A stretch of 64,000 bases of DNA from Ignavibacteria bacterium (GCA_030835085.1 JAUQWQ010000076.1:8389-72388), one strand, 5' to 3'. Counted from the stretch's first letter, positions 8,960 to 60,836 are shown. Numbers and translations: made by a program. The notes: a model not told the origin generated them from the letters alone.

Positions 8960-9218
8960 TTAATTTTATTTGATTATGGTCACTATTAGTTTAGTGATTT
9001 ATAAGTGTTATTTATCTTTATAATAAAGATAAAAAATTATTGTACTTTCCTGCCAGGTTTTTACTCATTACATATAAAACAGAACATCATAATTAACCGA
9101 AACTATGAACTATATAATTTTCTGAATATGAGTTACTTTCTGCTGTTAAAATACAAAGGTTTTTAATAAATGTAATAACGTGAATAAGTTATGCTGAAAT
9201 ATCTGTTATATCAGAAGT

Positions 9219-11030: not shown

Positions 11031-11292
11031 ATAATATGATAATTTTACAAATATTGTAAAGAATATGTTAAATTAAAACCCTTTTACATTCTTATTCACG
11101 TTATTTTTCGGTATGAATTCTGTTTAATAATATGATTTTTAAGATTTTGTATTCATTTTTGACTTGAAGTACTTTTATTAGAACATAATATTGTACAAAA
11201 TACTGAAATGCTCTTGAAAGAGGGGCTCCCTGATTTTAGTTATTACATTGAGACCCTGATATCATTATTCTTAGTAAAACAGAATCAAATTT

Positions 11293-13230
11293 ATGAAAGA
11301 TAGATCACGCTCTGATACAGTTGTACTTTTATGCGGGTATTTAATCATCATAACCGGAATTTTATTCTTTTTCGGTTTATTACTCGGAATAGCACCTTTT
11401 TTGAATGTATTACCCGGTTATGTACCTATGAATTCTGTGACTGCACTTTGTTTTATTGCATTAGGTCTTTCATTAATTTTACTGGTATTAAAAATCCCTA
11501 ACAGATCTTTGATAATAATGATTTCGGTATTTGTAATTTTGAATGCATTTTTGGCATTAAGTTATCACATTACCGGTGAATATACCACTCTGGATGTTCT
11601 GCTTCCTCAAATCCTTCGGAGTTCCAGTAAAATGGCTCCGAATACGGCAGTTCTGCTGATTGCTGCAGGAGTTATTATACTTTTTTTGAAAAGACCTGAA
11701 CCTTTGATCAGAAACGTTATCCAGTATATATTATTTGGAGCGGGATTTATTTCATTATTTGCCTCTCTTGGATTCCTTTACCGTATATCTTCTTTTTATC
11801 ATGTCGGCAATTATACACCCATGGCTCTGAATACTTCAGTCATGTTCCTGGTCTTATTTGGCGGACTGATGCTTGCTGATAACCAAAGCAAATTCATGGA
11901 ACTGGTAAAGGGCAGCTCTCCCAGTGCTGTTATTAGCAGGCGCATGATACCTTTTGTTATCCTCCTTCCAATCCTTCTGGGCTGGCTGCGGATCTTTGGT
12001 GAAAATGCAGGACTGTACGGATATTCAACTGGGGTAGCGATTTTTGTAATATGTGTTATAGTTGCACTTTTTATAATGGTAGTTTATAATGCTGCACATT
12101 TAAAAAAGGAAGAATATGAAAAAAGTAAGTATGAAAAAGAAATTATTGAAAGCGAAAGGAAATTAAGGGCTGTAATAGATAATTCAACTTCAGCTATATA
12201 CCTGAAAGACCTGAACAGAAGGTTTATCATGGTAAATAAAGCAACACAGAAAAACCATGGATTAAACGAAAAGGAATTTCTGGGCAAAACTTTAACTGAC
12301 CTTTTCCCTCAGCATCCTGAAGCTGTGAAAGTATATGAGGAACATGACCGCGCGGTAATTGATAGCGCACAGGCTTATGAATTTGAAGAAACAGCATTAT
12401 TACCTGATGGCATACACATATATCTTTCACAAAAGTTTCCTCTTACAGATATTAACGGTAAAGTGTACGCAATGTGCGGAATTTCAACAGATATTACTGA
12501 AAGGAAAAAAACCGAGGAGAGAACTGCAACTTTGAATAAATTGCTGCAGGAAAGCAATAGTGAGCTTGAATCATTCAGCTATTCTGTGTCACATGATCTT
12601 AGAGCCCCGCTGAGGCACATTATTGGATTCGGGGAAAAACTAAAAAGGATATCAGAAGAACATTTGAATAATGAAGAACTGAGGCTGCTTGGAAAAATAA
12701 ATACCAGCGCAGCGAAGATGGGAAGGCTCATTGATGATCTGCTGATGTTCTCCAGGGTTGGAAGAACAGGTCTTTCTGTAACAAGACTGGAATTGAATAA
12801 TATAATTGATGAATATATTTCGGAGTATTTAAATAACTCTAATGACGGAGAAATACAATGGAATGTTGAGAGGCTGCCGGCTGCTGATGCTGACCCGTTC
12901 CAGATAAAAATTGTTCTTGATAATCTGCTATCTAATGCTGTTAAATATACTGCCAAAGCTGATAAACGAGTTATAGAAATAACAGGAACAGAAAGTGTAG
13001 AAGAGAATATATACACTGTTAAGGATTCCGGCTGCGGTTTTGATACGGATTATATTGATAAATTATTCGGTGTGTTCCAGAGACTGCATAGAGATGATGA
13101 ATATGAAGGAACAGGTATCGGTCTGGCTACAGTTAAAAGAATAATTAACCGGCACAATGGAAGAGTATGGGCTGAAAGCCGGCAGGGAGAAGGAGCTTCC
13201 TTTCACTTTACTTTGCCAAAAAACAGATAA
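11293..13230 (+). CDS. membrane sensor histidine kinase (multi-TM N-domain, PAS, HisKA, HATPase_c)
   Basis: 645 aa with about 7 N-terminal hydrophobic helices. PAS-like region, H-box SYSVSHDLRAPLRHI, and HATPase motifs (DNLLSNAVKYT, DSGCGF, GTGIGLATVKRI). Confidence 0.85.
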   Translation: MKDRSRSDTVVLLCGYLIIITGILFFFGLLLGIAPFLNVLPGYVPMNSVTALCFIALGLSLILLVLKIPNRSLIIMISVFVILNAFLALSYHITGEYTTLDVLLPQILRSSSKMAPNTAVLLIAAGVIILFLKRPEPLIRNVIQYILFGAGFISLFASLGFLYRISSFYHVGNYTPMALNTSVMFLVLFGGLMLADNQSKFMELVKGSSPSAVISRRMIPFVILLPILLGWLRIFGENAGLYGYSTGVAIFVICVIVALFIMVVYNAAHLKKEEYEKSKYEKEIIESERKLRAVIDNSTSAIYLKDLNRRFIMVNKATQKNHGLNEKEFLGKTLTDLFPQHPEAVKVYEEHDRAVIDSAQAYEFEETALLPDGIHIYLSQKFPLTDINGKVYAMCGISTDITERKKTEERTATLNKLLQESNSELESFSYSVSHDLRAPLRHIIGFGEKLKRISEEHLNNEELRLLGKINTSAAKMGRLIDDLLMFSRVGRTGLSVTRLELNNIIDEYISEYLNNSNDGEIQWNVERLPAADADPFQIKIVLDNLLSNAVKYTAKADKRVIEITGTESVEENIYTVKDSGCGFDTDYIDKLFGVFQRLHRDDEYEGTGIGLATVKRIINRHNGRVWAESRQGEGASFHFTLPKNR

Positions 13231-13265
13231 AAAATGTTTTTTCATAAATTAAACAAATTAATATT

Positions 13266-13706
13266 ATGGCTGTTAATAATTTAAACAGGATATTGATAGT
13301 TGAAGATAATGAAAATGATCTTGAGCTTACCATTGACGCATTATCTGAACATAATTTCGCTAATTTTATAGATGTTACAAGAGATGGAGAGGAAGCACTT
13401 GACTATCTTTACAAACGGGGAAAATTTTCAAAAAGAGAAAATGGAAATCCGGTAGTTATATTACTTGATCTTAAACTTCCTAAAATAAACGGTCAGGAAG
13501 TTCTGAATGAGATAAAAAATTCAGCTGACTTCAAAGCAATTCCCGTAGTAATACTTACCTCTTCAAAAGAAGAATCAGATCTCATAAGCAGTTATCAAAA
13601 AGGTGTTAATGCTTATGTAGTAAAACCGGTAGATTTTCATGATTTTGTTGATGCAGTAAAGAATCTTGGTATTTTCTGGGCTTTAATAAATGAAACACCC
13701 CGATAA
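13266..13706 (+). CDS. single-domain response regulator (REC only)
   Basis: 146 aa. ILIVEDNENDLE ... ILLDLKLPKINGQEVL ... VVILTSS ... AYVVKP. Confidence 0.9.
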   Translation: MAVNNLNRILIVEDNENDLELTIDALSEHNFANFIDVTRDGEEALDYLYKRGKFSKRENGNPVVILLDLKLPKINGQEVLNEIKNSADFKAIPVVILTSSKEESDLISSYQKGVNAYVVKPVDFHDFVDAVKNLGIFWALINETPR

Positions 13707-13733
13707 TCTTTGTAGAATTTATATTAACTTAAT

Positions 13734-15149
13734 ATGACTGATAAACTTAATATTTTACATCTTGAAGATGACGATAATGACTCAGAACTGGTTTTAAATG
13801 AGCTGGAATCTGCCGGATTTAAATTTGAATACAAAAGAGTAGATAATGAAAGTGATTTTACATATTCCCTGATCCACTCGAGTTATGATATAATTTTCAG
13901 TGATTTCAGCCTTCCGACTTATAACGGGTTAAAAGCACTTGAAAGATCCATGAGTATCCGCCCGGAAGTTCCATTTATACTGGTTTCGGGAACGCTTGGC
14001 GAAGATGCAGCGGTTGAATCAATGAAAAAAGGGGCTACTGATTATGTGCTGAAGAACAAGCTATATAAATTACTTCCTACAATTAACAGAGCATTAGTAG
14101 AAGCCAAAGAAAAAAAGTTAAGAGAATCAGCTGAAAACAGGTATGGGATATTAATTGAATCAGCAAGAGATATAATTTTTACAATTTCCACCGGCGGTTT
14201 AATTATTTCATTGAATAATGCTTTCAATGAAATTACCGGGCTGAACAGGGAAGACTGGATAGGAAAGGAATTTTCAGGTTTAATACATCCTGATGATCGG
14301 GATTTAGCTTTATTCAGATTTAACAGTGTAAAAGAAGGCAGCAGGTCCGAAAGCTACGAAATGAGATTTATCAATTCCTCCGGAGAATATTTTTATGGTG
14401 AAATTCTGACTGCATATATTGACCGGGGTAATATCAACGGTGAGATACTTGGTATTGTAAGAGATGTTACTGAACGAAGGAACGCTGAACTTATCATTCT
14501 TAATTCATTAAAAGAAAAAGAGATCCTCCTGAAAGAAATTCATCACCGCGTGAAAAATAATCTCCAGATCATAATCAGCCTTATTAATATGCAGTCTTCA
14601 GAAATTAATGATACTTCTGTTCTAAACTCATTCAGGGAAATACAGAACAGGGTTGTATCAATGTCACTTATACACCAGAGCTTTTATCAGTCGAACAGTC
14701 TTTCTGAAATAGATTTTTCTCATTACATTAAACGGCTTGCTGAAAACTTATTCAGGATCTTCGGGATAAAAAAGGATAGAATTGAGTTATTCATTGATAC
14801 AGCGGGAATAAATATCAGTATTGATACAGCGATTCCTTTGGGATTATTGATCAATGAAGTATTTTCAAATTCACTTAAGCATGGATTTGAAGTAGGCAGT
14901 TCCGGCAGGATGTTTATAGAGCTAAGAAAATCGGAAGGTGACTATATTCTTCGGATAGGTGATAATGGCTGTGGCTTGCCAGCTGGAATTCAGCCTGGAA
15001 AAACAAATTCTCTTGGAATGACCCTTATCAAAATGCTTTGTGATCAGATTGATGGAGAGATAACTCTGAATAACGAAAACGGAACGGTATATTATGTGAA
15101 ATTTGCATCAAAAAGCTATAGAGACCGTCTGGATGGCATTATACATTAA
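13734..15149 (+). CDS. hybrid REC-PAS-HisKA_2-type histidine kinase
   Basis: 471 aa. N-terminal receiver (ILHLEDDDND ... IFSDFSLPTYNG), PAS, then HHRVKNNLQIIISLINMQ (HisKA_2/HWE-like H-box) and an ATPase domain. Confidence 0.85.
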   Translation: MTDKLNILHLEDDDNDSELVLNELESAGFKFEYKRVDNESDFTYSLIHSSYDIIFSDFSLPTYNGLKALERSMSIRPEVPFILVSGTLGEDAAVESMKKGATDYVLKNKLYKLLPTINRALVEAKEKKLRESAENRYGILIESARDIIFTISTGGLIISLNNAFNEITGLNREDWIGKEFSGLIHPDDRDLALFRFNSVKEGSRSESYEMRFINSSGEYFYGEILTAYIDRGNINGEILGIVRDVTERRNAELIILNSLKEKEILLKEIHHRVKNNLQIIISLINMQSSEINDTSVLNSFREIQNRVVSMSLIHQSFYQSNSLSEIDFSHYIKRLAENLFRIFGIKKDRIELFIDTAGINISIDTAIPLGLLINEVFSNSLKHGFEVGSSGRMFIELRKSEGDYILRIGDNGCGLPAGIQPGKTNSLGMTLIKMLCDQIDGEITLNNENGTVYYVKFASKSYRDRLDGIIH

Positions 15150-47456: not shown

Positions 47457-47523
47457 TAGCAGTATTAATCAATTGATTTAATAACCATTAATTATTATTC
47501 TGTACTTAATTAGATAGCAAAAA

Positions 47524-48018
47524 ATGAAAAAAATTGCATTATTAGCAGTAGTATTAGCCCTCGTAACCGGTATTTCATTTTCGCAGTTTAAAGAAATTCC
47601 CAATAAAACAAAAACACAGCTGAAATCCGGCAATGGTCTTCTGCTCGGATTCATTAATCCCAAGAATTTTTCCATTTCTCATTCTTTCAGTATGAATGTT
47701 ATGACTGGCGGAAATACTTCTGTAAGTCTTGCATCTTATACTGCAACAATGAATTATAAAGTGTTAAAGAACCTGAACCTGAGCGCTGATGTTACTATGC
47801 AGTATTCACCTTACGCTTCAATTGGTTCAAATAATCCTGCTATCAATAAAGATTTTCAGAATTCATTGAACGGCATAAATTTAAGCCGGGTTTCACTTGA
47901 TTACAGGCCTACAAAAGATATGTCTATAAGCATAAATTATTTTAACCACAAAGGCAGTTATTACGGTTACGATAATTACTATAACAGCTATTACAATCCA
48001 TACTGGTCCGGCAGGTAA
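47524..48018 (+). CDS. hypothetical secreted protein (Tyr/Asn-rich C-terminus)
   Basis: 164 aa with a signal peptide. Alternating beta-like pattern, no recognised domain. Confidence 0.5.
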   Translation: MKKIALLAVVLALVTGISFSQFKEIPNKTKTQLKSGNGLLLGFINPKNFSISHSFSMNVMTGGNTSVSLASYTATMNYKVLKNLNLSADVTMQYSPYASIGSNNPAINKDFQNSLNGINLSRVSLDYRPTKDMSISINYFNHKGSYYGYDNYYNSYYNPYWSGR

Positions 48019-48064
48019 GCTGCCAAAGCCGGTTTCAACATTCATATAATTAATACGGTTATTA

Positions 48065-48580
48065 ATGCCACCAGCAAATTCAGGTGAATTTGTAAGTAAG
48101 TTCAAAAATTATTCCATTAACATATTAATTGTTCTGTTGGCAGTTGTAACAATTTACCTTTTCTATAATCTTTTTAAGCGCCTTACAACTCCCCAAACAG
48201 ATGTTAAAACACAGGTGGTCGATTCCACTACTTATCTGACCAAGCAGCCATCCGGCGGCACACTGCAAATTGATGTGCAAAACGGATGCGGTGTATCAGG
48301 CATTGCTGATAAATTCACTGAGTACCTGCGTTCAAAAGGGTTTGATGTAGTTGAAATGGGTAACTTCACAACACAGGATATTAAGACCACGATGGTTATA
48401 GATAGAGCCGGCAATATGAAGAATGCAAAACGTGTTGCACAGTCACTGGGGGTATCGGATAAGTTCGTAATACAGCAGATGAATAAAAATTATTTCCTCG
48501 ATGCGACAGTTGTTATTGGGAAAGATTACGAGGATCTGATTCCTTTCAAACACCAGACGGAAACTCAGACAAAACCTTAG
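48065..48580 (+). CDS. LytR_C (LytR cell-envelope-related C-terminal) domain protein
   Basis: 171 aa with an N-terminal TM. LQIDVQNGCGVSGIADKFTEYLRSKGFDVVEMGN is typical of LytR_C. Confidence 0.65.
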   Translation: MPPANSGEFVSKFKNYSINILIVLLAVVTIYLFYNLFKRLTTPQTDVKTQVVDSTTYLTKQPSGGTLQIDVQNGCGVSGIADKFTEYLRSKGFDVVEMGNFTTQDIKTTMVIDRAGNMKNAKRVAQSLGVSDKFVIQQMNKNYFLDATVVIGKDYEDLIPFKHQTETQTKP

Positions 48581-48696
48581 TTGTGTAATTCCTGCCTGCC
48601 TGGTAAAGTCAGGTGAAAGCGGGAATGTATGAAGATATTACTTGATTTTTAAAAATCATTAAACTTAATCAATAATTTATAGAAAGTTTATACAAC

Positions 48697-49197
48697 TTGG
48701 ATTCCAAAACACTTGCTTTAAAACTCGCAGAACTTGCCTTAACAAAAAAGGCTGATGATATCAAAATACTTGACCTCAGGAAAATTACCACAATTGCTGA
48801 TTTTTTCGTGATTTGCACTGCCCACTCTGAACCGCAGGTTAAAGCTGTTGCAGATGCAATACTTGAAGGCGCTAAGAAAGACGGTGAAACCGTCTGGCAT
48901 AAAGAAGGTACCAACATGAAATCATGGGTACTTCTGGATTTCATTGATGTTGTGGTACATGTATTCCTGAAAGATACGCGCAGTTTCTATTCGCTCGAAA
49001 AGCTGTGGGGTGATGCTGAGATCACAGAAGTAACCGATGAAGCTCCGCAGGGAAAATTAATGGCTAAAACGGCAAAACCCAAAGCTGTAAAAAAGCCGGC
49101 GGTAAAAAAATCTGCTGTTAAAAAGGGAGCCTCGGCAAAAAAAAGTGCGGCTAAAAAACCGGCCGCAAAAAGAAAAACTGCCGTTAAACGCAAGTAA
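48697..49197 (+). CDS. rsfS: ribosome silencing factor RsfS with C-terminal Lys/Ala-rich histone-H1-like tail
   Basis: 166 aa, TTG start. RsfS core (ADDIKILDLRKITTIADFFVICTAHSEPQVKAV ... WVLLDFIDVVVHVF ... YSLEKLWGDA) followed by AKTAKPKAVKKPAVKKSAVKKGASAKKSAAKKPAAKRKTAVKRK. Confidence 0.8.
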   Translation: MDSKTLALKLAELALTKKADDIKILDLRKITTIADFFVICTAHSEPQVKAVADAILEGAKKDGETVWHKEGTNMKSWVLLDFIDVVVHVFLKDTRSFYSLEKLWGDAEITEVTDEAPQGKLMAKTAKPKAVKKPAVKKSAVKKGASAKKSAAKKPAAKRKTAVKRK

Positions 49198-49220
49198 CCT
49201 GATTGAACAAGCTGCCTGCA

Positions 49221-49250
49221 AAAGAGGTTATTTAATAACCTCTTTTTTTG
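49221..49250 (+). terminator. rho-independent terminator
   Basis: agaggtta...taacctct stem followed by T7. Confidence 0.75.
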
Positions 49251-49446
49251 TTTTTCTATACTGATCCATGAAAATTTTACCTGTTTTATGCAGGATTCGT
49301 TCAATTTAATGAGTACTTTTCTGTATTAGCTTGTTATTACTGCGGTTAATCTATATTTTGTGTTATCAATATTATAATAAGTAATATTGGTTTTCAAAAC
49401 CCTATTGAAAGTGATTTAATTTTAAAAAGTAATTTCTATATAATAT

Positions 49447-50097
49447 TTGAAAAGAATCAGACTAATAGTTATCGAAGATAACAGGCTCCTTCGTGACGGC
49501 ATTTGCGCAATGCTGAAGAAAGAGGCTGATTTTAATGTTGTTGCTGCATTTGATGACGCTGATTTTGCCCCGGAAAAGTTAACTGAACTCAAGCCGAATA
49601 TTGTTTTACTTGACCTTAGTTTGACCGAAAAAGACAGTTTAGAACTTGTCAATCTGCTGAGGAAAGAGCACAAGGATGTAAAAGTTATTGTTATGGATCT
49701 TCTTCCGCTGCAGGAAGATATTCTGCAATTTGTTGAAGCCGGGGTTTCAGGGTTTATTATGAAAGATGATACAATTGCGGAATTCCTTAAAACTATCCGC
49801 GCTGTACACGCAGGTGAAAAAATACTGCCTCCAACTGCTACCGGTTCACTTTTTTCGCAGATAATGGAATACGGAGTTAAGGAACTGGGTCCTCAAAAAC
49901 TGATACAGTCAGTTAGAATGACAAACAGGGAGAGAGAAATTGTACAGTTAATTGCAGAAGGATTGGCAAATAAAGAAATAGCGTTCAAACTTAATCTGTC
50001 TATTTACACCGTAAAGAGTCATGTCCATAATATCCTCGATAAAATGGCGCTTAACACGCGGGTACAGATAGCTATCAACGCAAAGTTAGTTGAATAA
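49447..50097 (+). CDS. NarL/FixJ-type response regulator (REC plus LuxR HTH)
   Basis: 216 aa, TTG start. IRLIVIEDNRLL ... VLLDLSL. C-terminal LTNREREIVQLIAEGLANKEIAFKLNLSIYTVKSHVHNILDKM. Confidence 0.85.
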   Translation: MKRIRLIVIEDNRLLRDGICAMLKKEADFNVVAAFDDADFAPEKLTELKPNIVLLDLSLTEKDSLELVNLLRKEHKDVKVIVMDLLPLQEDILQFVEAGVSGFIMKDDTIAEFLKTIRAVHAGEKILPPTATGSLFSQIMEYGVKELGPQKLIQSVRMTNREREIVQLIAEGLANKEIAFKLNLSIYTVKSHVHNILDKMALNTRVQIAINAKLVE

Positions 50098-50138
50098 ATA
50101 TTTTAGTTAAGCATTGATCTGTAAATAAGAGTTTACTT

Positions 50139-50459
50139 TTATATTGATAAAAATACTTTTTTGCCTTTAACACTATAATTCAATTCAGCTAGCATTAATT
50201 CCCTGTTTGAAAGATCCCCAATGATGTTTCTTCTGGGCAGAGGCATTCTGAGCACTAATGTTGGTATTGCCAATACCTGGTTCTCACGTGCAAGCTTTGG
50301 GTTCTTCAGTATGTCAATAACTTCCAGTTTATACATCCCTTTTAAAACCTCATTGCAAATGAATTTCAGATTCTTTAAAGCGGTGATACTTTTTATAGTT
50401 TTTCCCGCAACAAACAGGCTGATAACAGGTCTATTTTTTCGTAATTTCTTAATATTCAT
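50139..50459 (-). CDS. kaiB: KaiB (thioredoxin-like clock protein)
   Basis: 106 aa. ISLFVAGKTIKSITALKNLKFICNEVLKGMYKLEVIDILKNPKLARENQVLAIPTLV. Lies 14 nt downstream of kaiC. Confidence 0.85.
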   Translation of the reverse strand: MNIKKLRKNRPVISLFVAGKTIKSITALKNLKFICNEVLKGMYKLEVIDILKNPKLARENQVLAIPTLVLRMPLPRRNIIGDLSNRELMLAELNYSVKGKKVFLSI

Positions 50460-50473
50460 AAGAATCTATTTCT

Positions 50474-52213
50474 TTATTTTTTGGATTTTTTCATCACGAT
50501 CTTTTTTAATGGTGCATCACCTCTTCTGCTTTTTGCCATCTCCACTTTCACTTTTTTAAAACTCTCATTTCTTGCTTTTTCTATGTTTATGATCTTCAGC
50601 GACTCAGATTCTTCGGCTTCAAATTCTGATCTTAGCACAACTATCTGTGCTTCCATAGCTTCACGTTTTCGCTCCAGGCTGAACTGTTTGCTGCCAATTT
50701 CCTGCTGACGCAATAACTTTTCAGCGTCGTCTTCCATTTCTCTTGATAAACGCGCTGAGCCGGTTAAAACACCATCTACTCCTACATATACATCCACAAG
50801 CTCTATGCCGCTGTTTGTAAGCTTGAACTCACGGATCTGGTTGGAATGTGCCATACCCCTTGATTTGAGTACATAAAGCCCCCTGTTGCGCTCACCGCCT
50901 ATTTCTATATCCCTCAAAAGCAGCCATGTATCAATTAATGATGAAACATAAACATCGCTGTTTTCCAGGTTATCACCCGCGCTGGTTAAACTTGTGAAGA
51001 ATGCAGTGATGTGTTTCATTTTTAGAAAGTCTACAAGCCTGAGCAGCATATTCTTTACTTCTGATTGATTTTCACCTATCATAAACCCGTTTATCGGATC
51101 AAGAATTACTATTGCAGGTTTGAAAGTATTAATGAGTTTTATACTTGTTGTTAAATGAGATTCCAATCCGTAAAGCGTTGGTCTTGTCGCGTGAAATTGC
51201 AGTAACCCTTTTTTCTCCCATTGTTCCAAATGTATCCCAATTGATTTCATATTTCTCATAAGCTGGCTTGATGATTCTTCAAAAGTAAAGTATAGCACTC
51301 GTTCTCCTCTTCTGCATGCCGCTTCAACAAACTGCGCTGCAATGCTGGTTTTTCCGGTACCCGCAGTACCTGATACAAGCACCGTACTTCCCTGAAAATA
51401 ACCCTTCCCTGAAAGCATTGTATCTAGTCTTGGAATTCCGGTGGAGATCCTTTCAAGTGATGAATCATGGTTCAGCCCGAGCGATGTTACCGGCAGCACT
51501 GAAAAACCATCTTCATCTATTAAGAACGGATACTCATTTGTTCCATGAGTTGAACCGCGGTACTTTACAATGCGCAGCCTTCTTATAGAAGATTGGTCAG
51601 TTACTCTGTGATCCAGAAGTATAACGCAGTCAGAAACATACTCTTCAAGTCCGCTGCGGGTAAAGGCCCCGTCACCCTGCTCTGCGGTTATGATCGTTGT
51701 TACACCCTTTTTCTTCAGCCAGCTGAATAAACGTTTAAGTTCCGAACGGAGTATTCTTGAATTCGGCAGCTCAGAAAAAAGTGTTTCCAGTGTATCAAGT
51801 ACTATCCTTTTGGCCCCGATGCTTTCAATGGCATAATGAATTCTTACAAACAGACCCTCAAGGTCAAAATCACCGTTTTGTTTGGTTTCTTCGCGTTTGA
51901 CGTAAATGTTTTCAAGCCATAGTTTTTTCTGAGCTATCAGTTTATTAAGGTCGAATCCTAATGATGAAACATTCTGAATGAGTTCTTTTTCGGTTTCTTC
52001 AAAAGAAATAAAAACACCCGGTTCGTTGAATTCATTAGCTCCGCGAACAAGGAATTCCATTGCGAAAAGTGTTTTTCCGCAGCCTGCACCGCCGCAAATG
52101 AGTGTGGGTCTGCCTTTTGGCAAACCGCCGCCTGTAATTTCATCAAGTCCATGGATACTGGTCGGTGATTTAGGAAGAGGGCTGCGTTTGAAGTAATTCT
52201 TATTTTTTTTCAT
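50474..52213 (-). CDS. kaiC: KaiC (double RecA-like ATPase/autokinase) with long C-terminal extension
   Basis: 579 aa. CI Walker A GGAGCGKT plus FEETE, CII Walker A GTAGTGKT plus FEESS, CII phosphosite-region YVSSLIDTW. The last 70-odd residues are a charged, heptad-like tail. Confidence 0.9.
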   Translation of the reverse strand: MKKNKNYFKRSPLPKSPTSIHGLDEITGGGLPKGRPTLICGGAGCGKTLFAMEFLVRGANEFNEPGVFISFEETEKELIQNVSSLGFDLNKLIAQKKLWLENIYVKREETKQNGDFDLEGLFVRIHYAIESIGAKRIVLDTLETLFSELPNSRILRSELKRLFSWLKKKGVTTIITAEQGDGAFTRSGLEEYVSDCVILLDHRVTDQSSIRRLRIVKYRGSTHGTNEYPFLIDEDGFSVLPVTSLGLNHDSSLERISTGIPRLDTMLSGKGYFQGSTVLVSGTAGTGKTSIAAQFVEAACRRGERVLYFTFEESSSQLMRNMKSIGIHLEQWEKKGLLQFHATRPTLYGLESHLTTSIKLINTFKPAIVILDPINGFMIGENQSEVKNMLLRLVDFLKMKHITAFFTSLTSAGDNLENSDVYVSSLIDTWLLLRDIEIGGERNRGLYVLKSRGMAHSNQIREFKLTNSGIELVDVYVGVDGVLTGSARLSREMEDDAEKLLRQQEIGSKQFSLERKREAMEAQIVVLRSEFEAEESESLKIINIEKARNESFKKVKVEMAKSRRGDAPLKKIVMKKSKK

Positions 52214-52283
52214 GGATGATTATTTTTAATGATCTTTTAGCAAGATCGATATACATTTTGTTCCTGTATATTCTTACCTGAAT

Positions 52284-53165
52284 CTAAATTCTCTTTTTTA
52301 ATTTACTCAATTGAGAAATAACTGAGGAATATAACCTGTCGCCTTCTTCTTTTGTCGGACGGGATTGGACTGTTTCGCTGACAGATTTTTCTGCTATAAG
52401 CTGGCGGATGAAAGCAATTCTTTTATCCATCCATTGAGAGGTAAGTTGTTTTAACTCAAGAACTCCCTGGTCTTTATTGCCTGCAGAGTATTTCAGATTG
52501 CTGCTTTCTTTATCAAGTGATTCCATACTTTTACTGTAGTCACTCTTTGTGTTCAGCGGAGCTGTTCTGGCTGACTGATAGACGCCTTCAAACCTCGAAA
52601 TTGAAGTGCTTAATCTTGATAAATAATCTCTCGATTGTTCTATATCAGCCTGTTTTTGAGGGTCAACCGGCTCTTCCGCCTTGCCGTTTTTTATTATCGT
52701 TTGCTTCTGAATAATTACAGTATCTTTGTTTTTCTTTAAGGAATCTATCTGTGCCAGGAGATTTCCGCCTGAGTTAACATCATTGATTTTTTCAAGCATT
52801 AGCTGTGCATCATGATAGTATTCATCATTAGTAATTACTTTTGAAAGGAACACTATTGCTTCCGGATTTTTGCCTTCATTGTATGAACGTAATCCGTTTA
52901 TGTAATATATTTTAGACTGTGCGTTATTGAAATCCTTATCACCGGGACTTACACGCTGGAACTCATATAATGCCTCAGTATACTTTTTTTCTTTAAGGTA
53001 GTTGGTCCCTTTTTCATAATCAGATTTCCAGAGAAAAGCGTACCACAATACTGCGCCCGTAACGATAAAAAGCAAAAGAAAAGAAATTATGATCAGCGGA
53101 ATTGAACTTTTATTCTTTTTCCTGTCCTGATCATTACTATATGTATTTTGATTATTATTATCCAT
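52284..53165 (-). CDS. hypothetical single-pass membrane protein with TPR-like ectodomain
   Basis: 293 aa. Polar N-terminus, one TM (IPLIIISFLLLFIVTGAVLWYAF), then a helical repeat-like region. Confidence 0.55.
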   Translation of the reverse strand: MDNNNQNTYSNDQDRKKNKSSIPLIIISFLLLFIVTGAVLWYAFLWKSDYEKGTNYLKEKKYTEALYEFQRVSPGDKDFNNAQSKIYYINGLRSYNEGKNPEAIVFLSKVITNDEYYHDAQLMLEKINDVNSGGNLLAQIDSLKKNKDTVIIQKQTIIKNGKAEEPVDPQKQADIEQSRDYLSRLSTSISRFEGVYQSARTAPLNTKSDYSKSMESLDKESSNLKYSAGNKDQGVLELKQLTSQWMDKRIAFIRQLIAEKSVSETVQSRPTKEEGDRLYSSVISQLSKLKKRI

Positions 53166-53194
53166 TTTTTTATTGTTTTACAATTTTACAGGTT

Positions 53195-53773
53195 CTATTT
53201 AACAACATTCGGGTTTGAATGTTTAATTTTACCCCAATACTCTTCATAGTTAAAGCTTTTGAATGTAGGACTATCTGAATTGTGACATGTAACGCAGAAT
53301 TCAGCACCGTTTTCATGTATTACAAGTCCGTTTGCTATCGATTGTTCCTTATCTTTCATTATAGTAAGTCTTTTATATTCCGAGCCCGGTCCATGGCAGG
53401 TTTCGCACTGTACGCCCTGGGTTTTATCAAATGTATCTGCAAGTTCTTCGGGGTCTATATCTTTGCCCAAAATGTGGCATTTCATACAAAGCGGTGTTTC
53501 GGCAGCCGGTGTGGTGAAACCTTTATCTTTTGCAATCTTATCAGCTTCGGGTGTTTGCAGGGTTAAGAATGCCTTTGAGTGTTTTGATTCTTCCCAAATT
53601 TCAAGTTGTTTGCCTTTGGTTTCGCTTTTGTGGCATGTTGATGCGCAGTTATTTACTCCTACATATTTAAAATACGGCGCTGCTTCTTTGTTCTTAATCC
53701 CGGTGTTTCCCGAAAAAATAAATACAAAGATAAGCGCTGCCAGTAATGCAGGTATATAGATTATCTTTTTCAT
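53195..53773 (-). CDS. multihaem c-type cytochrome (3x CxxCH plus 1x CxxxCH)
   Basis: ORF 53195..53800. Preferred start M10 (MKKIIYIPALLAALIF, signal peptide). Haem motifs CASTCH, CMKCH, CETCH, CVTCH. Confidence 0.75.
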   Translation of the reverse strand: MKKIIYIPALLAALIFVFIFSGNTGIKNKEAAPYFKYVGVNNCASTCHKSETKGKQLEIWEESKHSKAFLTLQTPEADKIAKDKGFTTPAAETPLCMKCHILGKDIDPEELADTFDKTQGVQCETCHGPGSEYKRLTIMKDKEQSIANGLVIHENGAEFCVTCHNSDSPTFKSFNYEEYWGKIKHSNPNVVK

Positions 53774-53805
53774 AATAGTAATTATTATAGTTGAGTACAA
53801 AGTTG

Positions 53806-53813
53806 CAAAAGTA
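53806..53813 (-). promoter_or_regulatory. Bacteroidetes-type -7 box (TACTTTTG on minus strand)
   Basis: Plus-strand caaaagta, 33 nt upstream of the cytochrome start. No comparable box was seen in the 29-nt, 70-nt or 14-nt gaps down to kaiB. Confidence 0.45.
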
Positions 53814-53903
53814 TTTTGTAATGTAGAATAGTCCGTAAGGTTGAAATAAGGATTAGTTCCTGTTTCAACCTAAAGCGTAATTGTGGAATGTTTTATTCTG
53901 CCG

Positions 53904-53911
53904 TAGCTTTG
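53904..53911 (+). promoter_or_regulatory. Bacteroidetes-type -7 box (TAGCTTTG)
   Basis: TAnnTTTG match 21 nt upstream of the ATG at 53932. Confidence 0.35.
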
Positions 53912-53931
53912 TATACAATAAAAATAACACA

Positions 53932-54468
53932 ATGAAAAAATTAACAATTTTACTCTGTATGTTACTTGGATTTTTTGCTGCTGATAAAAAAATTATGTCT
54001 TCAGAAGATCCTGCTGTTCCTAAAACAGTTTTTACCAATGCTGATATCCAGTCACTTGCTTCGGTTTACCTGGAAAATAACCTTGGTATTAAAAATCCCG
54101 CAATTGTAGATGTGGATAAAGACGGCGATTTTGATATTCTTGTTTTCAAAGAGGGTAACGTAGAATTTTATAAAAATACAGGCACACTTGAAAAACCGTC
54201 ATTTGTTCCGGAAAATATGAATTACGATAAATACAGCACAACATTGCCAATACATCTTGACCTTCCGTACCCGGTCTTCTTTGCTGATAAAAACGGTGAC
54301 AGCAGTCCCGATATGTTCGTTATACAGGATAAAGTATATGATACACAGCAGCAAAAAACTGAATATAAGGTATTGTATGCTGAAAATGTACTTGGACTCG
54401 ATACAGGTGTTCTTATTACCATAGTGCTTGTACTGCTTATAATTGTTTTGGTTCTTGCAATTTTATAA
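53932..54468 (+). CDS. small secreted FG-GAP/VCBS-like repeat protein with C-terminal TM anchor
   Basis: ORF 53881..54468. Preferred start MKKLTILLCML. VDVDKDGDFDILVF and DKNGDSSPDMFV resemble Ca-binding FG-GAP turns. Hydrophobic tail VLITIVLVLLIIVLVLAIL. Confidence 0.5.
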   Translation: MKKLTILLCMLLGFFAADKKIMSSEDPAVPKTVFTNADIQSLASVYLENNLGIKNPAIVDVDKDGDFDILVFKEGNVEFYKNTGTLEKPSFVPENMNYDKYSTTLPIHLDLPYPVFFADKNGDSSPDMFVIQDKVYDTQQQKTEYKVLYAENVLGLDTGVLITIVLVLLIIVLVLAIL

Positions 54469-54499
54469 TAATGCTTAAAATAACAGAATTGGAGGTAAG

Positions 54500-54682
54500 A
54501 TGTCTTTAATAACAATTTTAATAACATTGGTCGTTGTAGGTTTTCTTCTCTGGCTCATAAATCTTATTCCAATGCAGCCCACCATTAAGAAAATAGTTAA
54601 TGCAGTGGTAATAATATTTGCGGTTGTATGGTTATTTAAGATCTTTGGCTTATGGACCTATTTGGCAAATATTACAGTATAG
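54500..54682 (+). CDS. small two-TM membrane protein (resembles Thivi_2564-type family)
   Basis: 60 aa, RBS ggagg. MSLITILITLVVVGFLLWLINLIPMQPTIKKIVNAVVIIFAVVWLFKIFGLW. Confidence 0.55.
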   Translation: MSLITILITLVVVGFLLWLINLIPMQPTIKKIVNAVVIIFAVVWLFKIFGLWTYLANITV

Positions 54683-54711
54683 AAATTTAATAATTTAAAG
54701 AAAGAAATATT

Positions 54712-55521
54712 TTGAAACATATCAGATCAATCACAATTTTAGCGGGGGTTTTCGTACTAATGCTGGGTACTTTATTTGCACAGCAAAAAGGAACTGGACT
54801 TTCGGACCAGTATGATAATGCTTCATACTTATCACAATCAACGCCCGGAACTATGCTGCCCGGACAAAGTTATGGGGTATCGGTTACCATGAAGAATACC
54901 GGCCGCAGTACATGGAAGCAGGGTGGGTATGCATTGAAGCTTATTAATGTAAATGAATCAACTGTGAAAACATGGTCCGTAAGCAGTGTTGATGTAAATT
55001 CCTCAGTCAGCCCCGGAAATGAAGTAGTATTTAACTTTACTATAATCGCTCCTGTTGACGGAAGTTATAATATTCAGTGGCAGATGGCAAACGGAAATGA
55101 CTTCTTCGGTGAAACCAGTTCAAACATTCCGGTCAGAGTTTCAGGTCCTGATCTTCCGACAGAAGTGCCGAATATCATAGAAAATAATGCAATGTTCATT
55201 TCTCAGAGTGTACCATCAGAAATGGAAACAGGCTTAACATATGATGTAACAGTAATTATGAAAAACACGGGATTAACTACATGGAAACCAGGTGTGAACA
55301 AATTAAAAGTATCCACCACAGGCGCAGATAACACTCTGAATGCATGGGTTGTTGCCAATGTTGAGCTCTCAGGTGAAGTTGCACCGCGTTCGGAAGTTGT
55401 ATTCAGTTTTAAGGTAACTGCTCCAAATAAATCAGGTTTATATAACCTGCAGTCTCAGATAGTTAAAGACGGAATATTTTTCGGTCAGCCAACAACAAAT
55501 GTGGTAATAAATGTGAATTGA
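54712..55521 (+). CDS. secreted protein with two tandem NBR1-like Ig-fold domains
   Basis: 269 aa, TTG start, signal peptide. Two homologous halves (SQSTPGTMLPGQSYGVSVTMKNTGRSTWK... / SQSVPSEMETGLTYDVTVIMKNTGLTTWK...). Confidence 0.55.
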   Translation: MKHIRSITILAGVFVLMLGTLFAQQKGTGLSDQYDNASYLSQSTPGTMLPGQSYGVSVTMKNTGRSTWKQGGYALKLINVNESTVKTWSVSSVDVNSSVSPGNEVVFNFTIIAPVDGSYNIQWQMANGNDFFGETSSNIPVRVSGPDLPTEVPNIIENNAMFISQSVPSEMETGLTYDVTVIMKNTGLTTWKPGVNKLKVSTTGADNTLNAWVVANVELSGEVAPRSEVVFSFKVTAPNKSGLYNLQSQIVKDGIFFGQPTTNVVINVN

Positions 55522-55596: not shown

Positions 55597-55741
55597 TTCC
55601 CAAACAGATCATGCAGGGAGACTACACCATTAGATGTAGTTCTTTTTTCATCCTTACGTATAATTGAATTAGCGCGGTTCTTGTTGTAGTTTAGTATCAA
55701 TGAATAAACAGAAATGAATCAAATAACAGGAATAACAATCA

Positions 55742-57439
55742 ATGATAAAAATGAATACAGATTATTTAAAAATTAAGAAGTTTTTTTTCAGTTTTCTTGT
55801 TATGGCAGTATTATTTCCTTTTGCCATTTACTCACAATCACCGGGAAACCCGGTAAGCATTGCAGGTAATCATCAAACAAATCCTGTGATGACTACCGAT
55901 GGAAGCGGCGGAACGATCATTGCCTGGCAGGATAACCGTAATGGCAAATACGAGATCTACGCGCAGAGAATGAATGGTGACGGCAATGCAGTATGGAGTG
56001 TTAACGGTCTGCCTGTTTGCCAGCAGGATAGTAATTTTAAACCAATGATAGTAAGCGATGGCTCCGGCGGTGCAATTATTGCATGGCAGTCATACCGCGG
56101 AAGTTCGACCGCTGATATTTACGCGCAGCGTATAAATTCAACCGGTAATATTATGTGGAGCTTAAATGGTCTCCCTGTTTGTGTAGTTGTTTTTGAGCAG
56201 GATACCATTTCAATGGTAAGTGATGGCCTGGGGGGTGCTATACTTACCTGGCAGGATTACCGCAGTAATAATGGTTTTGCTGATATATATGCACAGCGTA
56301 TTAACCCAAGCGGTACAATGATATGGACCGCAAACGGAGTAAATATCTGCAACCAGGCCGCATCACAGCGCGGACCGAAAATAATCGGCGATGGTTCAGG
56401 CGGCGCTTTCATAACATGGTATGATAACAGGGCAGGCAATTATGATATATATTCGCAGCGAGTTGCCTCAGCGGGTGCCGTAGTATGGACAACAAACGGT
56501 GTTGCCACATGTACAATGGCAGCTGATCAATTGACACCTGATGTTGCCGGAGACGGTGCCGACGGGGTCATTATTACCTGGACGGATTACAGAAGCTCAA
56601 CTGATTTTAATATTTACGCACAAAGAGTGGGTCCTTCAGGCGCAATTGTTTGGGTTGTAGATGGTGTAGTTATGAACAATAATGTAGCATACGCTCAAAC
56701 AGATCCTAAGATCGTTAGTGATGGTTTAGGCGGTGCGATAATTTCGTGGACTGATTACAGAACCGGAATTACTGCTGATATTTATGCACAGCGGGTGAAT
56801 TCAACCGGGGCTGTTCAGTGGACTGCTACGGGTGTAATAATCTGTACTGCATCAGGAGACCAGATATTTTCTCAGTTAACAAGCGATGGTAATAACGGAG
56901 CTTATATTACCTGGGAAGATCACAGGAATGCAGGAAATTCTGATATATACGCGCAGCGAATTTCTTCAAATTCTGCATTGAACTGGGCAGCTACAGGTTA
57001 TGAAATATGCACAATTGCCAGTGACCAGCTAAGGCCTAATTTAGTCAGTAACGGAAACCTGGGGGCAATTGTTGTATGGCAGGATTACAGAAGCGGCAGC
57101 AGTTTTGATGTTTATGAAGTTGGTTTTAACACAACAGGAATTATAGGAATTGATCCGTTTGGCAATCTTACTCCCTCTGAATATTCTTTATCGCAGAATT
57201 TTCCTAATCCGTTCAATCCGGTTACCACTATAAACTATGGGCTTAGATCATCCGGAAATGTTAAAGTAAGTATATACAGCATACTCGGTGAAAATGTAAG
57301 TGTGCTGGTAAATGAAGTGCAAAATGCAGGGGAATACTCAGTAATATGGGACGCTTCAGGCTTTCCCAGCGGAGTATACTTCTATAAGCTTGAGTCAGGT
57401 TCATTTACATCACACAAAAAAATGATATTGATCAAATAA
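55742..57439 (+). CDS. secreted protein with about 8 tandem repeats of roughly 55 aa and a T9SS C-terminal sorting domain
   Basis: 565 aa with a signal peptide. Repeat consensus by eye: SDGxGGAIIxWxDYRxxxxxDIYAQR(I/V)NSxGxxxWxxNGVxxC. CTD QNFPNPFNPVTTINYG...KKMILIK. Confidence 0.75.
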   Translation: MIKMNTDYLKIKKFFFSFLVMAVLFPFAIYSQSPGNPVSIAGNHQTNPVMTTDGSGGTIIAWQDNRNGKYEIYAQRMNGDGNAVWSVNGLPVCQQDSNFKPMIVSDGSGGAIIAWQSYRGSSTADIYAQRINSTGNIMWSLNGLPVCVVVFEQDTISMVSDGLGGAILTWQDYRSNNGFADIYAQRINPSGTMIWTANGVNICNQAASQRGPKIIGDGSGGAFITWYDNRAGNYDIYSQRVASAGAVVWTTNGVATCTMAADQLTPDVAGDGADGVIITWTDYRSSTDFNIYAQRVGPSGAIVWVVDGVVMNNNVAYAQTDPKIVSDGLGGAIISWTDYRTGITADIYAQRVNSTGAVQWTATGVIICTASGDQIFSQLTSDGNNGAYITWEDHRNAGNSDIYAQRISSNSALNWAATGYEICTIASDQLRPNLVSNGNLGAIVVWQDYRSGSSFDVYEVGFNTTGIIGIDPFGNLTPSEYSLSQNFPNPFNPVTTINYGLRSSGNVKVSIYSILGENVSVLVNEVQNAGEYSVIWDASGFPSGVYFYKLESGSFTSHKKMILIK

Positions 57440-59878: not shown

Positions 59879-60053
59879 TTAAAAATGTGCCAAAATGACC
59901 AAAAAACAGGGGTTTTCAAATCATTCATAAGGTGTAGTTCTTAATTCATCCTATAGACTGATTGGAATACCCCGCAAATAAAGTTAGATTGTTATATCAA
60001 AGATTCAAATAAAAGGTTTCATAATTCACTAAACTAAAAGGAGATTTAAAAAA

Positions 60054-60836
60054 TTGAAAAAAGTTAATACATTAGTAGTTGTTTTAATGCTGCTTTTTGC
60101 CGCATCAGGCCTGAAAGCACAAACATTTGCCGTACCTAAATGGAACATACATTTCCATGGCGGATATACACTATCTTTGCCTGATCTAAAAGGAACATTC
60201 CCTGCAGACCTTGAATCAGGTAAAAATCCAACTCCGTATTTTGTGAATAACGGTTTCAACGCAGGAGCGGATATAAAGTATTACATAGATAAAAAAAGTA
60301 CCTTCGGCCTTCTTTTATCTTTAACATATACCGGCTTAAGCAGCGGCGATATCGGTGTCTCAAATCTTGATAGTAACAGTATTCTGGGTATCGGTTCAGG
60401 TACGTGGAGATCCAACATGAATATATTCACAATTGGTGTGGGTGCTGAATATGACTTTGCACCGAAGAGACCGGCTAACCCGTTTGTTAACGCTCAGTTT
60501 ACAACTAATATAATAGGCGGTAACACTAAGTTTGATCAAAGCGGCGGATTTGTTGAAAGTTATTCACGAGACATGTCTTCAGCAGTAAGATTCGGTGCTA
60601 TGTTTGCTGCCGGAGTTGATGTTAAGCTCAGCAAAAATGTAGGTATCGTTATTGGCGGCAGGTATTCATTTGCCAACCTGTTCGGCAAAGATTCAACAGA
60701 AAGCACAAGTACTACGTATGGTTTAAACGATAAAGAAACCACAACAATGAAGTCAAGGAAAATGGCTTATCTCCAGTTCTATGCAGGTGTAAGTTTATAT
60801 TTCGGTCAGCCTAAAAGACCTTTGAAGAAGAAATAA
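60054..60836 (+). CDS. outer-membrane beta-barrel protein (OmpW/porin-family-like)
   Basis: 260 aa. TTG start with aggag RBS, signal peptide ending LKAQ, alternating beta-strand pattern with an aromatic near the C-terminus (YFGQP). Confidence 0.6.
   Translation: MKKVNTLVVVLMLLFAASGLKAQTFAVPKWNIHFHGGYTLSLPDLKGTFPADLESGKNPTPYFVNNGFNAGADIKYYIDKKSTFGLLLSLTYTGLSSGDIGVSNLDSNSILGIGSGTWRSNMNIFTIGVGAEYDFAPKRPANPFVNAQFTTNIIGGNTKFDQSGGFVESYSRDMSSAVRFGAMFAAGVDVKLSKNVGIVIGGRYSFANLFGKDSTESTSTTYGLNDKETTTMKSRKMAYLQFYAGVSLYFGQPKRPLKKK

Follow-up and report, generated by a model that had tools for sequence, protein, structure and literature searches.

What could a KaiC-KaiB pair be doing in Ignavibacteria, a group known to be non-phototrophic, and are its genes expressed together with those of the multiheme cytochrome c and the membrane protein that lie directly upstream? 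Both questions are raised by a 64,000-nt stretch of DNA from an Ignavibacteria bacterium (GCA_030835085.1, JAUQWQ010000076.1:8389-72388; hereafter 'the window', with all coordinates counted from its first nucleotide), in which the four genes lie on the same strand between positions 50,139 and 53,813 (Table 1). An initial annotation, made from the sequence alone, proposed that they form a KaiA-less timer co-transcribed with the cytochrome. The reading that we favor, and which we regard as rather probable, is that the pair is of the Rhodobacter-type KaiC2/KaiB2, that it forms a four-gene operon with the membrane protein and the cytochrome, expressed from a conserved promoter/operator module, and that its output is carried by a NarL-type response regulator. 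The targets and the output route of KaiBC systems outside cyanobacteria are largely unknown (PMC5520375), and our literature search found no paper that ties KaiC to Ignavibacteria or to multiheme cytochromes.

The window KaiC was confidently assigned to the NCBIfam family NF006799 (731 bits, cutoff 408), and PF06745 matches it in two stretches (373 bits), which correspond to two tandem RecA-like KaiC domains. The translation contains every sequence feature that had been listed for this protein of 579 aa: both Walker A loops (GGAGCGKT at residue 41 and GTAGTGKT at residue 282), the EE pairs of both the CI and the CII domain (residues 72-73 and 312-313) and the SS phosphosite (residues 424-425, inside YVSSLIDTW), which corresponds in the alignment to the two residues replaced in 8FWI, the S413E/S414E phosphomimetic variant. 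In an alignment of the best 80 loci from a scan of relatives that used one genome per species (the same 80 loci were used for the synteny analysis), Ser is present at position 424 in 78 sequences and at position 425 in all 80. A search of all PDB sequences identified KaiC from R. sphaeroides (RsKaiC, 8DBA) as the best match (660 bits; 52% identity over 562 residues), while cyanobacterial KaiC scored ~360 bits and the cutoff of the cyanobacterial equivalog TIGR02655 was not reached (379 vs 546.25). Since residues 13-576 of the window KaiC align with residues 5-566 of 8DBA, the homology extends through the tail.

The product of kaiB, which follows 14 nt after kaiC as annotated before, also has its best PDB match in R. 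sphaeroides (KaiB, 8FWJ chain M, 4e-24), and it does not reach the cutoffs of the cyanobacterial KaiB equivalogs (TIGR02654: 85 vs 145.3; NF006798: 87.5 vs 110). None of the 56 open reading frames (ORFs) of at least 120 aa in the 64-kb window carries a KaiA domain, and a KaiA3-like gene was likewise not found there. The proposal of a KaiA-less pair of the Rhodobacter type is thus well founded, but neither the absence of KaiA nor the extended tail is special to this locus. The one-genome-per-species scan retrieved at least 588 loci with long-tailed KaiC relatives, the best 80 of which come from many phyla and match the window KaiC out to approximately residues 531-579. A ~50-aa C-terminal extension and two serines are characteristic of a large clade that consists mostly of the kaiC2 subgroup (Pitsawong et al. 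2023, PMC10076222), and Bacteroidetes genera encoding only KaiB2 and KaiC2 were noted in 2017 (Schmelling et al., PMC5520375). Thus, judging from sequence, the pair is an ordinary member of the known kaiC2/kaiB2 Rhodobacter-type clade; the window KaiC sequence itself is already present in NCBI, and JGI or NCBI list several of its close relatives as 'circadian clock protein KaiC'.

The C-terminal tail aligns with that of RsKaiC within a single HMMER domain (residues 493-576 vs 482-566 of 8DBA), with 21 of 83 residues identical. All 80 aligned relatives possess a tail, of 77-117 aa, and the alignment contains no Pro- or Gly-rich column in this region. The tail is therefore homologous to its RsKaiC counterpart, as had been surmised. 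In RsKaiC it forms a 12-helix bundle that links two hexamers, stabilizes the dodecamer and, as has been proposed, is linked to dephosphorylation through allostery (PMC10076222). The accompanying statement, according to which the Rhodobacter extension supports KaiA-independent phosphorylation, is at variance with the experiments, in which truncation of the coil left autophosphorylation and nucleotide exchange unchanged; it is the exposed A loop, and not the coil, that enables KaiA-independent autophosphorylation (PMC10076222).

The two genes upstream of kaiC (henceforth 'the cassette') encode a secreted cytochrome and an orphan membrane protein, at distances (29 nt between the two, 70 nt before kaiC) that agree with those reported initially. 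The cytochrome is a member of the c554 family PF13435 (55.6 bits, cutoff 20.8), although it falls far below the cutoff of NF043010, the Nitrosomonas c554 equivalog (42 vs 400), and its translation begins with a hydrophobic signal sequence. Its description as a four-heme protein holds, as CASTCH, CMKCH, CETCH and CVTCH are conserved in 48 relatives; the first site, however, is of the Cx3CH and not of the CxxCH type (Cx3CH in 29 of the 48 relatives, CxxCH in 19). The membrane protein is indeed single-pass, but its characterization as TPR-like (tetratricopeptide repeat-like) is unsupported, with no Pfam family scoring above its cutoff. Its family comprises 58 members among 5.8 billion proteins, and in every full-length context examined it directly follows the cytochrome within a kaiC locus.

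The case for a common operon is built on a predicted promoter/operator module of ~80 nt upstream of the cytochrome gene. The module comprises an inverted repeat, a core with a single exact match in the window (0.04 expected by chance) and, ~25 nt downstream of the core in the aligned upstream regions, a TTTG-type box that resembles a -7 element. It precedes the cytochrome gene in the window and in all cassette-bearing relatives (among L001-L003, L081-L084, L110, L119 and L122-L133, the L-numbers being our handles for loci), and it is retained in L084, where no kaiC is found within 6 kb of the cytochrome; more distant cytochromes are devoid of it. Directly upstream of kaiC, the module occurs in L002, L003, L081 and L130, and also in L125, which has no cassette. 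L002, L081 and L130 represent intermediates with two modules, and the window, L001, L123, L127-L129, L131 and L133 have a single module, in presumably fused operons with a gap of 11-91 nt before kaiC. Neither a copy of the module nor a TAnnTTTG box is present in the 70-nt gap of the window, and between the cytochrome gene and kaiB the only terminator-like site is a weak one inside kaiC. The gap can fold into a hairpin (-12.4 kcal/mol, z = -1.97), which was ruled out as a terminator on account of its missing U-tract and its lack of conservation in L123, L128 and L129. With the module that belongs to kaiC in relatives located in front of the cytochrome here, and with no terminator-like site and no module copy in the gap, the proposed co-transcription from the cytochrome to kaiB is the most parsimonious interpretation of this comparative anatomy, and the four genes probably constitute one operon in the window.

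The association between the cytochrome and kaiCB is conserved in one sub-lineage of Ignavibacteria, but it is facultative. In tblastn searches of the 80 genome loci with the neighboring proteins of the window, the cassette was found beside kaiC in L001, L002 and L003 only. The closest genomes are Ignavibacteria metagenome-assembled genomes (MAGs; KaiC identity 89, 84 and 80%), which, together with the many proteins sorted by the type IX secretion system (T9SS) encoded in the window, fits the earlier placement of the host in the Fibrobacteres-Chlorobi-Bacteroidetes (FCB) group. Relatives identified via the protein database exhibit the same four-gene order (L123, L127, L128, L129, L130, L131 and L133, with KaiC identity of 94, 96, 93, 86, 86, 75 and 90%, respectively). 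A metagenome scan with the cytochrome as the query yielded 42 loci, with kaiC downstream in one of them (L081), although many of the contigs end too soon downstream for kaiC to be excluded. Hence the conserved synteny in close relatives (L001, L123, L127-L131 and L133) is in line with the initial annotation, and the cytochrome link is real in this sub-lineage; it is nevertheless narrow, missing from L125 and from 41 of the 42 metagenome loci with relatives of the cytochrome, many of them on short contigs. This distribution suggests that a cytochrome unit with its own copy of the module came to lie beside kaiC, and that later deletions may have removed either the inner module, fusing the two units, or the whole cassette. 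The series of loci, from two promoters through a fused operon to the loss of the cassette, also illustrates clearly, on a small scale, how an operon can be remodelled when its promoter module is repeated.

A related element (consensus TTAGTTCCTTTTTCATCCCTTTGGACTAT) is located 50-180 nt upstream of kaiC in ~20 other Ignavibacteria, and it also precedes narL, genes for radical S-adenosylmethionine (radical-SAM) proteins and other neighbors of kaiC; it is always intergenic and almost always oriented with the gene. Loci of other phyla are essentially devoid of it. Two weak copies in the window, the first of which has conserved counterparts at orthologous positions of L125, L001 and L082, precede other genes (Table 1), and these TAGTTC-TTTTTCATCC copies (55633-55658 and 59932-59963) are possible members of the same regulon. 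The -7-like box had been described as the only TAnnTTTG motif of this stretch. It is indeed present upstream of the cytochrome, and TACTTTTG (53813..53806) is the sole intergenic occurrence, but it is not the sole copy on the minus strand, where further copies were found at 53732, 53435, 51287, 51234 and 50088. Since TAnnTTTG is not enriched between genes (12 of 89 occurrences in the window, with 12.3% of the bases being intergenic), the box alone is weak evidence, and its interpretation as a general promoter signal of this genome was rejected. A sigma-54 or extracytoplasmic function (ECF) sigma factor reading of the module was discarded as well, as on visual inspection neither GG-N10-GC nor GGAAC-N16-17-CGT matches its spacings and conserved bases. 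An Rfam scan of positions 49000-55000 identified no family near the threshold, hence the module does not correspond to any known RNA element.

The candidate for the output of the system is encoded convergently with kaiB. Its earlier assignment to the NarL-type response regulators was confirmed by Pfam (Response_reg: 56.7 bits, GerE: 60.5 bits) and by full-length alignment with VraR, NarL and DevR. Of 27 Ignavibacteria-type loci, 21 contain a homolog of the regulator, usually directly upstream of kaiC on the same strand and often after a gene for a B12-binding radical-SAM protein, and it is the sole transcription factor consistently encoded with kaiC in this group. Outside Ignavibacteria, kaiC is followed by kaiB, sometimes by a second kaiB, and then by a PAS/HisKA_3 histidine kinase. 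In Ignavibacteria, the place of a conserved kaiC partner is thus taken by a NarL-type regulator and not by the PAS-HisKA_3 kinase of other phyla. Its genuine GerE helix-turn-helix (HTH) domain and full-length alignment with VraR and NarL also indicate that the regulator is not a KaiA3-like chimera, and this identity was rejected. NarL-type regulators are normally phosphorylated by HisKA_3 kinases.

A number of findings speak against the preferred reading or parts of it, and they are best weighed together with the alternatives. It could be argued that the presence of the cassette beside kaiCB is a neutral accident of rearrangement, in which the cytochrome brought its own copy of the module, deletions between the repeats fused the units or removed the cassette, and no functional relation exists. 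L125 and L126 (KaiC 91%, GCA_013329015.1) have no cassette between flanks that are identical on both sides, and in L081 the membrane protein has decayed to a 44-aa remnant, i.e. the cassette is dispensable. Moreover, genes on the opposite strand occupy ~2.8-4 kb between the cassette and kaiC in L003 and L132, related elements precede unrelated genes of the window too, and the single metagenome locus with kaiC downstream and the kaiC-less L084 mentioned above point in the same direction. A purely neutral history nonetheless appears rather doubtful to us. Of 13 distinct related contexts, 8 have retained the order of the four genes, at KaiC identities of 75-100% and with the membrane protein down to 50%, and this orphan protein was found nowhere else; besides, the internal module has been lost in several four-gene contexts, where kaiCB would be silenced unless read-through from the cytochrome promoter is functional. 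A further possibility is that kaiC and kaiB possess an unrecognized promoter of their own, located either within the 70-nt gap or at the 3' end of the gene for the membrane protein, with the cytochrome and the membrane protein as a separate two-gene operon. A promoter inside that 3' end is possible, independent modules do precede kaiC in L002, L081, L130 and L003, the gap folds into the modest hairpin described above, and pairs of sigma-70-like hexamers are scattered over the region, yet at the level expected by chance (23 vs 19.8). Considering that the gap contains neither the module nor a TAnnTTTG box, that it shrinks to just 11-15 nt in L001 and L133, and that the hairpin is neither conserved nor followed by a U-tract, we deem a separate kaiCB promoter unlikely.

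Or perhaps KaiBC is not a timekeeper at all, but a regulator of the stress response or of the metabolic state, which senses the energy or redox status of the cell and signals via the two-component regulator? The host belongs to a group that is non-phototrophic, and 17 of the 27 loci of the Ignavibacteria type are without a kaiB near kaiC, a finding that speaks against the conservation of a KaiB-dependent cycle among these bacteria. KaiC2 homologs, e.g. KaiC2 from Legionella, have been implicated in stress responses (PMC5520375), and KaiC-like proteins from Pseudomonas act with kinase and regulator neighbors (bioRxiv 10.1101/2022.01.26.477890). On the other hand, kaiB is kept directly after kaiC here, both proteins are closest to the Rhodobacter hourglass pair, and an ATP/ADP hourglass and a sensor of metabolic state are not mutually exclusive. 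A role other than timing is therefore to be taken seriously, even if we would not back it.

Further points of this kind concern the regulator, the module and the tail. The receiver domain of the regulator retains the acceptor Asp and the Lys, but it has Asp at the Thr/Ser switch position. No HisKA_3-type histidine kinase was found in the window, so that the kinase, if any, is encoded elsewhere. The window module, with TTTCAACC where the broader consensus of Ignavibacteria has TTTCATCC, departs from that consensus (profile E = 0.16), and the link between regulator and module is one of co-location and speculative. As to the tail, the AlphaFold2 monomer of KaiC, built from 40 close homologs, is weak (mean predicted local distance difference test score, pLDDT, 53.5), and hence unsuitable for fold searches, so that nothing but the helical state of the tail was taken from it (residues 500-563 modelled as one helix, pLDDT 57-66). 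A single-sequence heptad score revealed no coiled-coil signal (fraction of shuffles at least as good: 0.54), and a Fourier analysis of 3.5-residue periodicity in the 80-sequence hydrophobicity profile was likewise negative (P ~0.45-0.66). The proven RsKaiC coil also failed the heptad test (0.33), which leaves both tests powerless, and the hydrophobic patches of the profile are broad, rendering the Fourier test uninformative.

Returning to the reading of a Rhodobacter-type pair in a four-gene operon with a NarL-type output, the following scheme can be proposed. By homology, KaiC would be a double-domain ATPase/autokinase with a Ser-Ser phosphosite, whose helical extension of ~90 residues most likely joins two hexamers as in RsKaiC, and KaiB would promote the dephosphorylated state of KaiC, so that the pair may act as an hourglass or an ATP/ADP-responsive switch and not as a self-sustained clock. 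In the sub-lineage of the window, the cassette lies between kaiC and the module that serves kaiC in relatives, from which all four genes are most likely transcribed in the window. In what is a speculative step, the NarL-type regulator is the likeliest protein to bind the module and to carry the output. A redox input or output through the cytochrome, as envisaged in the initial annotation, is pure inference. A more far-reaching version, namely that the KaiC2/KaiB2 hourglass signals via the NarL-type regulator to promoters marked TAGTyC-TTTTTCATCC-GGACTAT, including those of its own operon and the four-heme cytochrome, is in our view a long shot; if true, a transcriptional output regulon would for the first time be defined by sequence for a Kai system from outside the cyanobacteria, and an ATP/ADP timer would be connected with respiratory electron transfer. 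In any case, the locus offers two starting points: a conserved cis-element, found at kaiC promoters and at a limited number of other genes in Ignavibacteria, and a DNA-binding NarL-type regulator in place of the usual kinase neighbor.

Comparison with known systems helps to delimit what is new. The KaiBC hourglass of R. (Cereibacter) sphaeroides (8DBA/8FWI, 8FWJ; PMC10076222) shares with the window the double-domain KaiC, the Ser-Ser site, a tail that aligns along its length, the downstream kaiB and the lack of KaiA; it differs in the host, in the sequence of the tail (21 of 83 residues identical) and in having a PAS histidine kinase after kaiB, where the window exhibits a convergent NarL-type regulator and, upstream in the probable operon, the cytochrome and membrane-protein genes. 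Members of the kaiC2/kaiB2 subgroup (Schmelling et al. 2017, PMC5520375) are similar in their two phosphosite serines, the KaiA-independent type and the co-occurrence of kaiB2 and kaiC2 in FCB-group bacteria, but that survey left out the Ignavibacteria neighborhoods, the upstream element and the cytochrome cassette. In the typical kaiC-kaiB-(kaiB)-PAS/HisKA_3 operon, encountered in Acidobacteriota, Pseudomonadota, Bacteroidales and further loci, KaiC belongs to the same clade (60-67% identity) and kaiB is immediately downstream; the kinase, present in most loci outside Ignavibacteria, is missing from the window and its relatives, which possess the NarL-type regulator instead. In the KaiA3-KaiB3-KaiC3 system of Synechocystis (Koebler et al. 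2024, PMC11372060), the C-terminal domain of KaiA3 resembles KaiA, in contrast to the GerE HTH of the window regulator, and the window KaiC is of the KaiC2 and not of the KaiC3 type. The KaiC-like proteins of Pseudomonas (bioRxiv 10.1101/2022.01.26.477890) also combine a KaiC homolog in a non-phototroph with a gene-neighborhood link to two-component signalling, but those systems have no KaiB and their single-domain regulators do not bind DNA, whereas the window encodes KaiB and a regulator with a DNA-binding domain. The operon and the regulatory context of the locus thus constitute a lineage-specific variant, distinguished by the cytochrome cassette, the shared upstream element and a NarL-type partner in the absence of the kinase.

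Table 1. Coordinates of the genes and predicted elements discussed in the text (positions in the window).
Feature	Position	Strand	Remarks
NarL/VraR-type response regulator	49447..50097	+	convergent with kaiB; receiver and GerE HTH
kaiB, KaiB2-like	50139..50459	-	106 aa; PF07689 84.8 bits (cutoff 27)
kaiC, kaiC2/Rhodobacter type	50474..52213	-	579 aa; NF006799, 8DBA alignment, catalytic motifs
KaiC C-terminal extension	50477-50758 (residues 486-579)	-	homology to RsKaiC tail
Orphan single-pass membrane protein	52284..53165	-	293 aa; N-terminal transmembrane helix, C-terminal bulk predicted periplasmic
c554-family secreted cytochrome c	53195..53773	-	ORF reaches 53800; likelier start ATG 53773, 192 aa, signal peptide
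Conserved promoter/operator module (predicted)	53793..53874	-	~80 nt; nhmmer profile E = 1e-17
Inverted repeat of module	53871-53863 / 53846-53838	-	AGGTTGAAA / TTTCAACCT
Module core	53846-53828	-	TTTCAACCTTACGGACTAT; general form TTTCAAyCTnnCGgACTAT
-7-like boxes of module	53813-53806, 53805-53798	-	TACTTTTG, CAACTTTG
Weak copy of related element	55633..55658	+	GTAGTTCTTTTTTCATCC...; ~85 nt before T9SS-tail gene 55742..57439; nhmmer E = 0.019
Weak copy of related element	59932..59963	+	before outer-membrane beta-barrel gene 60054..60836; nhmmer E = 2.4, weak alone

Several observations on KaiB in the relatives deserve mention. The 17 Ignavibacteria-type loci referred to above (L004, L006, L010, L011, L013-L024 and L052), in which a KaiB profile search of six-frame ORFs identified no KaiB-like ORF within ~6 kb, encode long-tailed KaiC proteins with 72-81% identity to that of the window; KaiB-less tailed KaiC2 may thus be common among Ignavibacteria. 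Between close relatives, KaiB diverges much faster than KaiC (L127: KaiC 96%, KaiB 80%; L001: 89% and 66%). In L026, L031, L033, L036, L043, L044, L049, L053, L062 and L078, mostly of the Bacteroidales type, a tandem pair of kaiB genes comes after kaiC, and a short PAS protein or a kinase is encoded behind the pair.

With regard to the NarL-type regulators, those linked to KaiC in Ignavibacteria (cluster c3, L001-L025) have Asp or Gly at the switch position ('VIVMDL') and both the acceptor Asp and the Lys are preserved in them. Another recurrent neighbor of kaiC in this group is a gene for a B12-binding radical-SAM/DUF4070 protein, in many cases accompanied by an additional narL paralog (L003:3228-4802, L132:6878-8362, L021:3059-5092, L004, L052, L017:10260-11741), and the related upstream element precedes it in L017 and, weakly, in L021. 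The window itself encodes a cluster of sensor kinases at 7184-15149, composed of two TPR-HisKA proteins, one PAS-HisKA protein, a stand-alone receiver and a receiver-PAS-HisKA_2 hybrid. As these kinases are of the HisKA or HisKA_2 type and ~35 kb away, and no evidence links them to the Kai proteins, they were dismissed as Kai partners.

In L002, the flank that corresponds to the window (47472-53996) is strongly conserved (LytR_C protein 98%, RsfS 90% identical), and the kai locus is far more diverged (KaiC 80%, KaiB 56%, membrane protein 68%), for which recombination, fast evolution or a chimeric MAG are possible explanations. RsfS (48697-49197, plus strand) has a C-terminal tail of ~50 residues rich in Lys, Ala and Pro, reminiscent of histone H1, and a strong terminator-like hairpin (49220-49246) lies 3' of its gene.

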